Assembly: GCA_947259975.1 (NCBI GenBank)
Contig: CAMYOD010000039.1
Location: forward strand, 12,997-76,996
From: an uncultured Gammaproteobacteria bacterium
Lineage (GTDB): Bacteria; Pseudomonadota; Gammaproteobacteria; HyVt-429
Length of the DNA stretch: 64,000 nucleotides
Reading direction: 5' to 3'
Shown here: one piece after another, positions 26,899 to 32,397 of the stretch
How the letters are laid out: every line of letters begins with the position of its first letter
Position numbering within the stretch: the stretch's first letter is position 1
The notes under the pieces: generated by a model
Seen by the model: the letters and a program-made list of their open reading frames with translations, nothing else
Told to the model about the DNA's origin: nothing
The model's database searches: none
Program-made: the position numbers and the translations under genes

Positions 26899-27306
26899 AT
26901 GAAACAGTCTCGGGCATTGGTCGCGCTGAGCGCGTGCGGCGCACTGCTCGCAGGGCAGTGGGCGTTTGCCGCGGATTATGCGCCCGACTGGAAACGGGGG
27001 CGCATCTATTACCGTATGGTGTGCACTGCCTGCCACAAGGCCGAGACCGGTCAGTCGATTTCCCCCATGAGCAAAACCATTGCCGAGTGGGGGGAATACG
27101 TCGACACAGACCAGCACGATGCCTCGGCGCGCGCCAACCCCTCATTGAAGTATTACGTCAGCCGCGAATACCGAGACAGCGTCAAGAACGAAAACAAGGC
27201 CGCGGCCAAATTCATCGACGTGCCGGCGGACGAGTTGCTGGCCGACCTCCGCGCATGGGTCGTGCACGGCGCAAAAGACTCGGATACGCCGGCACGTTGC
27301 CAGTAA
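26899..27306 (+). CDS. Periplasmic monoheme c-type cytochrome (CxxCH)
   Basis: Start at the internal ATG MKQSRALVALSACGALLAGQWAFA (signal peptide), with a single CTACH heme-binding motif. It sits 16 bp upstream of yeeE. Confidence 0.65.
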   Translation: MKQSRALVALSACGALLAGQWAFAADYAPDWKRGRIYYRMVCTACHKAETGQSISPMSKTIAEWGEYVDTDQHDASARANPSLKYYVSREYRDSVKNENKAAAKFIDVPADELLADLRAWVVHGAKDSDTPARCQ

Positions 27307-27322
27307 TGACAAGGGGTGAGTA

Positions 27323-29965: not shown

Positions 29966-31789
29966 ATGAGTTTGCGCCCAACCCAAACCCGTTGGTTCGA
30001 AATCCTCACCAGTCGTGATCGCACCGTGTGGGCTCTCGACGCGCTGGCGCACAGCGGTCTGGTGCAGCTCGAAATCGATCCGCGCGCCCTGGAGCGGGTC
30101 GAGCCGGCGGAGCTGCGCCTGCGCCTGCTCGCCCACGACGAGACCGCGAAGCGTTACCAGGCCGTATGGCCGGAGATCGAACCGGGACCGCAGCCGCTCA
30201 AGCGTGCACCGGAGCAACTGCTGGACAATGCGTTGAAGTCAATTGCCGTGTGGGAGCGGGAGGCTGCAACCCTGGTCGAACAACTACAGTCCGCGCGCGT
30301 GCAACACAACAATCTGCAATTGCTGCGCGAGCTGGTGACGGCCGTGGACGAACAAGAGTTGGATCTCGGTTTGTTCTCCTCGCGTGGCGGTCCGATCGCC
30401 GTTGTTTTTTATGCGGTCGTGCCGGAACGGGTGCCGCGCAGAATCCCCGAGGGCGTAATCACCCGCGAATATCGAACGCCGCACCGCAGTTTCTTTCTCG
30501 CCATGGGCGAGTCGGTGCCCATCCTGCGACTCGAGGCTGAGCTGGCGGCCAAGCATGCGCAACGCCTGCAGCTGCCGGTGTGGCTGGGGCGCGACCGGCC
30601 GGCGAATCTCGCACGCATCAATGCGGACGCCGCGAGGCTGCGTGAGGAAATGAGTTCGCTCGACGCGCGCCTGGACGACATTAATGATAAGCATCGTCTG
30701 ACGGACGCCCTGCGCGACATCGCCCTGGTGCGCTGGTACGTGGAGCAGGCGGGGCAGCTCAGCTACAAAGAACGTTTCTGCCGCATCACCGGTTGGACCA
30801 CGGATCTCGACGGCGCGGAACTCAAGACGGTATTGGCCGCGGCGGGTCTGCGCGGGCGGCTGCGGTTTCCGCCCCCACCATCACGCCAGGTGGCGCCGGG
30901 GCGCATGCGTAACCCGCGCTGGGCGCGCCCGTTTGAGTTCCTCACCGGCCTGTTCGGGCAACCGAGTGGCGCCGAGGTGGATCCGAGCCGGCTGCTGGTG
31001 TTCATCACCCCGTTGCTGTTCGGCTATATGTTCCCGGATGTGGTCCACGGTGTTTTGATCGCGCTGGCCGGGCTGTTGCTGGCGCGGCGCTGGCCGCAGG
31101 CGCAGCTGCTCGTGCCCTGCGGCGCCGCCGCGGTGGTCTTCGGTTTCGTCTTTGGTGACGTGTTGGGTCTGCCCGGCATCATCGCGCCGTTGTGGGTGAA
31201 GCCGCTGGATGAACCGATCCTGATTCTGTTGGTGCCGGTGGCCGCGGGTGCGCTGTTGCTGCTGTTCGGACTGCTTCTGGGTGGTTTGCAGGCAAGATGG
31301 CGCGGTCAGCTCGGCGCGTGGATGCTGCTCGATGCGCCCATCATGCTGTTATTCGCAGGCCTGTTTGCGGGCATCGTTTATCGGCCGGCGTTGCTGGTCG
31401 CGGCCGTGGCCGTGTTGTGGTACGTGCTCGGCAGTCTTTATGCCGCGGCCGCGGGGCACATCGACAGCCTGCTCGCGGCGCTCGGTCATTGGATCGAACG
31501 CCTGGCGCAACTGCTCGTGAACACCGTGTCGTTCGTGCGTGTCGGCGCATTTGCCCTCGCCCATGCCGGCCTGTCCGGTGCCATCATCGCGTTGGCCGAG
31601 ATGACGGAGCATCGCATCAGCTACGTCCTGGTCATGCTCATCGGCACCGTCATCACGCTGGTGCTGGAAGGCCTGGTGGTGATGGTGCAGGCGATCCGCC
31701 TGATCTTTTTTGAGTTCTTTCTGCGCTTCCTGCACGCGGAAGGGCGCGAGTTCAAGCCCCTCAAGGCCTCCGGACGGCGCGACACATGA
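29966..31789 (+). CDS. V/A-type ATPase subunit I (a-subunit, 116-kDa family) homolog, orphan
   Basis: 607 aa. The N-terminus MSLRPTQTRWFEILTSRDRTVWALDALAHSGLVQLE parallels the NtpI start. The central motif NPRWARPFEFLTGLFGQPSGAEVDPSRLLVFITPLLFGYMFPDVVHG matches the V-type subunit I pattern NP..vkPFE.lt.mYG.P.Y.EIDPT…P.lFG.MFGD.GHG. C-terminal TM helix SFVRVGAFALAHAGLSGAI matches the [16 protein letters not shown] helix that carries the essential Arg. No other V/A-ATPase subunits are present in the window. Confidence 0.8.
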   Translation: MSLRPTQTRWFEILTSRDRTVWALDALAHSGLVQLEIDPRALERVEPAELRLRLLAHDETAKRYQAVWPEIEPGPQPLKRAPEQLLDNALKSIAVWEREAATLVEQLQSARVQHNNLQLLRELVTAVDEQELDLGLFSSRGGPIAVVFYAVVPERVPRRIPEGVITREYRTPHRSFFLAMGESVPILRLEAELAAKHAQRLQLPVWLGRDRPANLARINADAARLREEMSSLDARLDDINDKHRLTDALRDIALVRWYVEQAGQLSYKERFCRITGWTTDLDGAELKTVLAAAGLRGRLRFPPPPSRQVAPGRMRNPRWARPFEFLTGLFGQPSGAEVDPSRLLVFITPLLFGYMFPDVVHGVLIALAGLLLARRWPQAQLLVPCGAAAVVFGFVFGDVLGLPGIIAPLWVKPLDEPILILLVPVAAGALLLLFGLLLGGLQARWRGQLGAWMLLDAPIMLLFAGLFAGIVYRPALLVAAVAVLWYVLGSLYAAAAGHIDSLLAALGHWIERLAQLLVNTVSFVRVGAFALAHAGLSGAIIALAEMTEHRISYVLVMLIGTVITLVLEGLVVMVQAIRLIFFEFFLRFLHAEGREFKPLKASGRRDT

Positions 31790-32397
31790 GCGCGATGCAC
31801 GACCGGCGATGGTTAGTCGCGTTGCTCGTGATCTTCGCGGCCCTGGCGGTGGCAATAGCGTACGGTGTTACCCCTGGGTTCGACGCGGCGCTGTTGAATA
31901 ATCTGGCCATGCGGCAAAGCGATGCCGGGGATCGGGCGTTTGGCCTGCTGACGCCGCTGGGCTCGCTGCGCGTCCTCGTCCCCATGGCTATCCTCGTCAT
32001 CGCCATCGTATTGCTGCGGCGGCACGTGCGCGACGCGGTTTTCTTCGCCTTGGCGTTCGGTGGCGCGAGCCTTGCCAACACCTTTATCAAATTGTTAGTC
32101 GCACGCCCACGACCACACGAGTTCGATGCGCTGGTCGCGGCGGGGGGTTATGCCTTCCCCAGCGGTCATGTCACACAGATCGCCGCGTTTGCATTCGCGC
32201 TCTACCTGCTCGCTGCGCGCACGGGCGCGGTATGGCGTTGGCCGGCGGGGTTACTGCTGATGGGGCTGGTCGCCGTGGTCGCGACCTCACGGATCTATCT
32301 GCAGGTGCACTATCCGACGGATGTCATCGGTAGCCTGCTGTTCGCGGGGTTCTGGGTGCTCGCGGCACGGCACGCGGCGAACCGACTGTTTGACTAG
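31786..32397 (+). CDS. PAP2 family phosphatase (phosphatidic acid / undecaprenyl-PP phosphatase-like)
   Basis: Motifs KLLVARPRP, PSGH and SRIYLQVHYPTDV with 6 TM segments. The start ATG overlaps the stop of the subunit-I homolog (ATGA). Confidence 0.85.
   Translation: MSAMHDRRWLVALLVIFAALAVAIAYGVTPGFDAALLNNLAMRQSDAGDRAFGLLTPLGSLRVLVPMAILVIAIVLLRRHVRDAVFFALAFGGASLANTFIKLLVARPRPHEFDALVAAGGYAFPSGHVTQIAAFAFALYLLAARTGAVWRWPAGLLLMGLVAVVATSRIYLQVHYPTDVIGSLLFAGFWVLAARHAANRLFD

Follow-up and report, generated by a model that had tools for sequence, protein, structure and literature searches.

The a-subunit of vacuolar/archaeal-type (V/A-type) ATPases, called subunit I in prokaryotes, is understood only as half of a rotor-stator pair, and we know of nothing, proton conduction included, that an a-subunit should be able to do on its own. 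In this report, we describe a member of this family that stands alone within a 64,000-nt stretch of DNA (the window) from an uncultured gammaproteobacterium of the lineage HyVt-429 (GenBank assembly GCA_947259975.1, contig CAMYOD010000039.1, positions 12,997 to 76,996, forward strand). The gene codes for a full-length, intact homologue of the V/A-ATPase a-subunit of 607 amino acids (aa), and sequence comparisons place its product in a distinct clade of solitary paralogues that is split from the V/A-ATPase operon lineage of proteobacteria. The fold and the characteristic residues of the a-subunit family are known; what is new here is the solitary state, the markers of the clade and the remodelled cytoplasmic domain. 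We tentatively propose that such a protein may serve as an alternative stator for a rotor encoded elsewhere in the genome, and we weigh this proposal below against several other explanations.

An earlier note on this DNA, made from the letters and their translations, had called the protein a full-length a-subunit, and this call was borne out by Pfam, by a profile search of the PDB and by structure prediction. The protein scores 52.9 bits against Pfam PF01496 (V_ATPase_I; gathering cut-off 30.7, E-value 2.2e-14), and a family profile built from it and its relatives found Enterococcus hirae NtpI as the best PDB match (E 1.9e-31, nearly full length), with SFVRVGAF of the window protein aligned to the arginine-bearing SYTRLMAL of NtpI. 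An AlphaFold2 model (predicted local distance difference test score, pLDDT, 87.8; predicted template modelling score 0.73) had the two-domain build expected of an a-subunit, with an alpha/beta and coiled-coil N-terminal half, the cytoplasmic domain (about aa 1-310), and a C-terminal membrane domain (about aa 311-590). The top Foldseek matches of this model in the PDB were all full-length V-ATPase subunit a or Thermus thermophilus subunit I (best E 5.8e-22), with query-normalised TM-scores up to 0.70 and sequence identities of 13-21%. A cytoplasmic N-domain followed by an eight-helix membrane domain, at similar length, is likewise found in E. hirae NtpI (PDB 8wci chain P) and T. thermophilus subunit I (6qum/6r0z chain N), and the stator Arg of transmembrane helix 7 (TM7) and the Glu/Gln/Arg set of TM8 in these prokaryotic subunits align with the window protein. 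When the protein was aligned with human a4, the segment HWIERLAQLLVNTVSFVRVGAFALAHAGLS paired with a 30-residue stretch of a4 and LEGLVVMVQAIRL paired with a4 MEGLSAFLHALRL; Glu511, Arg525, His533, Glu568 and Arg578 fell on proton-path residues of a4 and presumably correspond to E721, R735, H743, E789 and R799 of yeast Vph1. Arg525 is invariant in all relatives, and the open reading frame (ORF) is intact with every family-invariant residue kept. The cut-offs of the NCBIfam equivalog models for V-type ATP synthase subunit I (PRK05771 series) were not reached, the best being NF004434 with 136.7 bits against 777, and by these profile scores the protein is a homologue of that subunit but no equivalog. 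The GC content at third codon positions of the gene is 0.79, as in the neighbouring genes; thus the gene is no recent arrival, and a recent horizontal insertion, which we considered, is ruled out by this native composition.

Unlike the gene for a prokaryotic subunit I, the gene has no c, F, E, A, B or D gene with it in the 64 kb. A tblastn search of the window gave no hit to these six subunits or to the two genes that precede subunit I in the closest operon lineage, and profile hidden Markov models (HMMs) built for each subunit from 58-91 homologues apiece gave no match at E<=1 among the window ORFs of at least 35 aa, in agreement with the statement of the earlier note that no other V/A-ATPase subunit occurs here. 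The 607-aa protein is at most 43% identical to any of 5.8 billion clustered proteins. Its closest relatives are operon-encoded subunits I, matching over full length at 35-43% identity, whose genes follow the order 117-aa gene (weakly G-like), 279-aa gene, I, c, F, E-like, A, B, D. The N-terminal motifs WFE and GW are common to the window protein and these operon-encoded proteobacterial subunits, such as the Thiohalocapsa marina protein named 'ATPase' (P0021, locus L001); the difference is that the window gene belongs to a sister clade of solitary genes. In a scan of one genome per species, 80 loci with relatives were found, about 72 with a full operon, two stopping at a contig edge and six (L011, L034, L044, L066, L067 and L069) with subunit I alone; these loci were found via subunit I, a route by which operons without subunit I are undetectable.

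Metagenomic sequences extended the solitary set. All four further metagenomic clade members that we looked up were solitary, and none of 56 metagenome loci retrieved with a DNA pattern for FGYMFPDVxHG contained c, F, E, A, B or D by tblastn or HMM. A clade member on a 4.74-Mb contig (GCA_041320475.1), viewed over 10 kb to either side, was solitary as well and lay between hfq and rpsP-rimM-trmD-rplS. Solitary copies also occur in JAPHTA01 (a Sedimenticola metagenome-assembled genome), CAZONS01 (a Thiobacillus metagenome-assembled genome), JAAEMR01, CAVSCL01, CAVXWS01 and JBGPWJ01. At locus L120 (1-1572, minus strand), the gene directly in front of a solitary-type subunit I codes for a G-like peripheral-stalk protein of 123 aa (HMM E 1.9e-17, with a weak match to Pfam V-ATPase_G_2); this contig stops within subunit I, leaving the upstream side visible. 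Among the operons, those of Thiohalocapsa and Thiocapsa at L001, L077, L083 and L084 are pairs of two different V/A-ATPase operons arranged back to back and divergently, and at L001 one of the two is typical, with a Pfam-recognisable AC39 d-subunit gene, and the other belongs to the lineage related to the window protein. At L081 (11818-14283), about 2.4 kb part subunit I from the c gene in an otherwise normal operon, where elsewhere there is an overlap or a short gap, and this distance suggests an insertion.

The solitary proteins share a common ancestry in our trees. In a neighbour-joining (NJ) tree of 123 sequences, the window protein, the six solitary genome loci and eight metagenomic proteins fell in one clade, and the monophyly of 47 full-length sequences with Pro357, the window protein among them, was recovered in 50 of 50 NJ bootstrap replicates. 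With the marker columns deleted and gamma-corrected distances, support for the clade was still 38 of 40. Long-branch attraction is therefore unlikely as the cause of the clade, which survives both treatments and whose Pro357 occurs in none of the 107 operon types. This residue was present in all 15 solitary sequences compared, whereas 92% of the operon types have Gly at the site; human a4 shares the Gly, and E. hirae NtpI has Ala here, so that the window protein carries Pro where the MF(G/A)D motif of prokaryotic subunit I has a small residue. The earlier note had taken LLFGYMFPDVVHG as a fit to the family signature, and this needs to be qualified, because the Pro357 in this segment stands in place of the Gly of operon-type relatives. 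Cys385 separates the two groups as well, being present in 160 of 160 solitary-type sequences versus 6% of operon types. His361 and the pair Pro384-Cys385 are further shared derived residues of the clade, and the window protein carries all three markers, Pro357, His361 and Cys385. A HMMER search over 1.84 billion representatives yielded about 31 clade clusters at 50% identity, with the window protein representing itself, and the mean pairwise identity within the clade is 0.46. The window protein and P0007 make up an atypical branch (grouped in 32 of 40 replicates), in which Trp68, Asn316-Pro317 and Glu324 are kept and most of the extra cysteines of the clade are missing. Proteins of the clade type are labelled 'V/A-type ATPase subunit I', 'ATPase' or 'hypothetical protein' in their sources, and MF-P-D together with LPCG provides a simple annotation marker that parts the solitary proteins from true ATPase subunits. 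A search of the literature found no description of solitary bacterial a-subunits, consistent with the view in the earlier note that a lone a-subunit has no known function.

The pattern of conservation within the clade differs between the membrane domain and the cytoplasmic domain. Over the 160 solitary-type sequences, Arg525, Gln575 and Arg578 are 100% conserved and Glu568 97%, and the window protein keeps Gln575 beside the five residues aligned with the proton path of human a4. Solitary and operon types share a mean identity of 0.62 in TM7 and 0.56 in TM8, with nearly identical consensus motifs in both helices, against 0.25 in the N-domain. Within the solitary clade, N-domain identity is 0.39, and the constraint on this domain is similar to that in operon types (ratios 0.70 and 0.65). 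Together with the native composition of the gene, this conservation speaks for continued selection. Cys151, Cys198 and Cys272-His273 of the cytoplasmic domain (window numbering) are found in about 90% or more of the solitary members, for example in L044:10001-11842, L067:10001-11851 and P0033, and this set could form a metal or redox site. At the same sites the window protein has Val151, Ala198, Cys272 and Arg273. It keeps Glu511 in addition to Asn316, Pro317 and Glu324, and has Thr instead of Asn561.

Our favoured explanation, held tentatively and at somewhat short of even odds, is that the solitary protein would remain a rotor-facing stator, with the proton-path residues of canonical a-subunits kept, and would dock on a c-ring of V/A type whose gene lies in another part of the genome. 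As an alternative a-subunit it would give rise to a membrane sector that is differently regulated or differently coupled, and its rebuilt stalk-binding domain would answer to something besides the usual V1 and peripheral-stalk assembly. Docking on a c-ring is favoured because the rotor-facing helices are the best-conserved parts, the proton-path residues are kept and the cytoplasmic domain is remodelled. The solitary-type gene of L120, which a G-like stalk gene precedes, fits the same explanation. Several observations weigh against it. The idea depends on a V/A-ATPase operon elsewhere in the genome, of which 64 kb were seen here, and none of about 70 solitary-clade loci lies beside such an operon. 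Most members lack Asn316, Pro317, Glu324 and Asn561, residues that do not vary among operon types, and only about a third of the members retain Glu511; these losses suggest a changed function, and the gain of conserved cysteines (Cys151, Cys198, Cys272 and Cys385) in nearly all members fits a new role. The window protein itself is only 32-39% identical to the other clade members, and raw identity puts it slightly nearer to the operon types; because these identities are low, its placement in the clade draws only on the NJ tree and the markers.

Part of this evidence may be read as pointing to an autonomous, neofunctionalised membrane protein that acts alone or as a homo-oligomer, for instance by conducting protons or ions along a gated path, by sensing, or by anchoring a new cytoplasmic partner in the membrane. 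The new function would then lie in the N-terminal domain, which is remodelled and bears cysteines. The clusters and the mean identity of the clade indicate that it is old and diverse, its members are solitary at all loci examined, and it has its own Pro357 and Cys385 besides the widespread cysteines and histidine of the cytoplasmic domain; several operon-invariant residues are gone in most members, and the domain that has diverged most from the operon types is nevertheless held in common within the clade. Against this, the best-conserved residues and helices make sense only opposite a c-ring carboxylate, a lone a-subunit would presumably leave Arg525 facing lipid, such a function has no known precedent, and no member is more 'canonical' than the window protein, in which two cysteines of the clade are missing. 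We regard an autonomous function as possible rather than probable, and nearly as likely as the alternative stator. A broader form of the idea, to which we give similarly guarded credence, is that the solitary a-subunits may be a conserved family that works without the V1 motor, as an independent proton or ion conduit, as a brake on the c-ring or as a V1-free membrane sector; control would then be exerted through the Cys/His-bearing cytoplasmic domain, by redox state or metal.

The remaining explanations are considerably weaker. The gene could supply the displaced, sole a-subunit of a V/A operon that has no subunit I of its own and lies in another part of the genome; in favour of this, the canonical residues are all kept in the window protein, Asn316-Pro317, Glu324 and Glu511 among them, and 64 kb is all of the genome that is visible. 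This is improbable, as all of the approximately 72 related operons keep their own subunit I, operons that were themselves found via this subunit, and the solitary genes, rather than being scattered recent escapes, belong together in a single old clade that has markers of its own. That the gene is a functionless, decaying remnant of a lost operon is harder still to credit: its solitary state and its strong divergence from every relative would agree with decay, but the 607-aa ORF is intact with all family-invariant residues retained, the fold prediction is confident, the composition is native and the clade is conserved in many lineages. The earlier note had proposed that the a-subunit and the lipid phosphatase encoded next to it form a proton-conducting module serving sulfur transfer by the adjacent YeeE transporter and rhodanese. 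The five genes lie close together on one strand, an ATGA overlap suggests co-translation of subunit I with the PAP2 phosphatase, and the 105-bp gap in front of subunit I has no recognisable terminator. We nevertheless consider this module very unlikely, because about 70 clade loci show neither sulfur genes nor PAP2 in synteny, the sulfur genes form a closed cassette of their own in other genomes, the subunit-I gene lies downstream of a GC-rich hairpin and has no clear ribosome-binding site, and no additional sulfur-oxidation gene was found in the flanks that were scanned.

The neighbourhoods of the solitary genes are informative on this point. The window's YeeE, rhodanese, cytochrome c, PAP2 and DsbB proteins had no homologue at the approximately 70 solitary-clade loci, and clustering of the flanking ORFs of 66 solitary loci found no neighbour family in more than six, the recurring ones being generic. 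A gamma-glutamyltranspeptidase-like gene, read from the translation, lies upstream at four solitary loci, which are probably related, and HicA-like and unknown genes overlap the subunit-I stop codon at single solitary loci. The downstream neighbour could be seen for 36 complete solitary genes and was convergent in 24 cases; thus the solitary gene is normally the last or only gene of its unit. More than 1000 homologues of the window's YeeE reach E<=1e-40, with identities of 59-67% among the best 120 listed. Of the loci with context, the two closest, L144 and L145, conserve the trio of cytochrome c, YeeE and rhodanese at 52-64% identity; at both, the trio stops after the rhodanese and the adjoining gene is on the other strand, which indicates that the trio is a self-contained cassette without the a-subunit and PAP2. 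Homologues of the window cytochrome c, at 50-60% identity, adjoin YeeE in L144, L145 and L146. At L146 (2491-8269), a cytochrome c homologue (50% identity) comes first and the YeeE orthologue last, and between them lie genes for a molybdopterin oxidoreductase, an Fe-S protein and an NrfD-type subunit; the oxidoreductase, Fe-S and NrfD genes may be read as a polysulfide/thiosulfate-reductase-like set, that is, as different partners for the cytochrome-YeeE pair. Thus, the overlap of PAP2 with subunit I is peculiar to the window genome, subunit I appears to lie beside sulfur-transport genes by chance in this one genome, and the proposed sulfur module is left unsupported, with clade members never syntenic with sulfur genes. 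A link between V-ATPase parts and sulfur transport was tempting and is now removed; taken together, the identification of the a-subunit and the rejection of this link are held with high confidence.

Table 1. Genes, marker codons and one predicted hairpin at the subunit-I locus (window coordinates)
Feature	Position	Strand	Basis or remark
Cytochrome c, monohaem, Sec-exported, 135 aa	26899..27306	+	Signal peptide and single CTACH haem motif
YeeE/YedE (Sulf_transp) membrane transporter, 428 aa	27323..28609	+	Pfam PF04143, 165.9 bits
Triple-rhodanese protein, Sec-exported	28715..29860	+	Pfam Rhodanese, 160.8 bits in 3 stretches
GC-rich hairpin, 9-bp stem, without U tract	29893..29920	+	In 105-bp gap between rhodanese and subunit I
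V/A-ATPase subunit I/a paralogue, solitary, 607 aa	29966..31789	+	Pfam V_ATPase_I
Pro357 codon (FGYMF-P-D), clade marker	31034..31036	+	Replaces canonical Gly
Cys385 codon (LPCG, second membrane helix pair), clade marker	31118..31120	+	Sequence comparison
Arg525 codon, TM7 stator arginine (SFVRVGAF)	31538..31540	+	Aligned with E. hirae NtpI and human a4 (SYLRLWAL)
PAP2-family lipid phosphatase, 203 aa	31786..32397	+	Pfam PF01569, 63.3 bits, cut-off 27.2
DsbB, convergent with PAP2	32394..32900	-	Pfam DsbB over residues 80-231 of 243-aa ORF

The six-frame ORF list reproduces exactly the layout given in the earlier note for window positions 26899-32397 (Table 1), namely five same-strand genes for cytochrome c, YeeE, the triple rhodanese, the subunit I/a homologue and the PAP2 phosphatase, separated in order by gaps of 16, 105 and 105 bp and then by the ATGA overlap, in which the ATG start codon of PAP2 overlaps the TGA stop of the subunit-I gene. 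The peptides cited in that note were found in the window translations, and Pfam assigned all four families proposed there for checking, Sulf_transp, Rhodanese, V_ATPase_I and PAP2. The cytochrome c reaches 18.8 bits on Pfam Cytochrome_CBB3, under the cut-off of 27. In the translation of the PAP2 gene, all three catalytic motifs of the family (KX6RP, PSGH and SRX5HX3D) are present, as KLLVARPRP, PSGH and SRIYLQVHYPTD. No clear Shine-Dalgarno sequence was found upstream of the subunit-I ATG, a terminator scan detected none in the 105-bp gap between rhodanese and subunit I, and the folding of this complete gap was not better than that of shuffles (z -0.64). Scans for promoters and terminators and folding of the intergenic gaps gave no informative signal, and rhodanese and subunit I may or may not be co-transcribed. 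The flanking genes are ordinary housekeeping genes, for a PilT-like ATPase, oligopeptidase B, a GAF-PAS histidine kinase, TamAB, an ATP-binding cassette (ABC) transporter and SdhCD, the ABC transporter and SdhCD being identified from their translations. The PADLOC anti-phage defence models did not match subunit I, PAP2, rhodanese or YeeE, and Rfam had no match close to the locus.

Some further features of the window were recorded. Rhodanese domains 1 and 2 (28897-29162 and 29206-29471) are a tandem duplication with a period of 309 nt, and a 93-nt stretch is 95% identical in DNA between them, which suggests that the duplication is recent or has been homogenised by conversion. A palindromic element of about 90 nt, with 25-nt arms and a loop of 38 or 39 nt, occurs at 33392-33480 and 34794-34881, on either side of the PilT-like ATPase gene, and its copies give spurious ORF extensions reading '..FTPTPF..' on both strands. 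A second family of intergenic repeats is found at 33063-33153, 33263-33353 and about 49805-49864 (84% identity over 91 nt); because one copy lies there, the first approximately 75 codons of the DsbB ORF (to 33125) are probably non-coding. The sole Rfam match in the window is the Burkholderia small RNA anti-hemB at 58445-58541 on the plus strand (62 bits, cut-off 49.5), which hints that the host may be Burkholderiales-like, and GC content falls to 47-52% at 60001-64000, compared with about 62% elsewhere in the window. Eleven of 11 window proteins looked up in a collection of 15 billion proteins were singletons at 90% identity and without a name, which indicates that the source lineage is very poorly sampled.

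The genes of the locus can be compared with known systems. YeeE-family transporters work with sulfurtransferases (PMC11582611), and the window trio of cytochrome c, YeeE and rhodanese fits the YeeE/TsuA/SoxT importers with their accessory sulfurtransferases; the difference is that the window rhodanese is periplasmic, whereas the partner in the YeeE/TsuA/SoxT systems is cytoplasmic and of the TusA/TsuB type. For the a-subunit, the analogy behind the alternative stator comes from eukaryotic isoforms, yeast Vph1 and Stv1 and mammalian a1-a4, in which several unlinked a genes would offer a model of many stators for one rotor. In eukaryotes it is established that all a isoforms share one V1 and one c-ring as partners, whereas the bacterial solitary clade is known here from genes alone. 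To our knowledge, unlinked a-subunit 'isoforms' have so far been known only from eukaryotes. A working mode without V1, if true, would be a new use of the stator outside ATP-driven rotation. A conserved clade of about 31 clusters at 50% identity and 160 sequences, which is solitary, keeps the rotor-facing residues and has rebuilt its cytoplasmic domain, changes the picture of the a-subunit, and it may be read in two ways, either as bacterial unlinked a-subunit 'isoforms' or as a stator that has been recruited to a new job.

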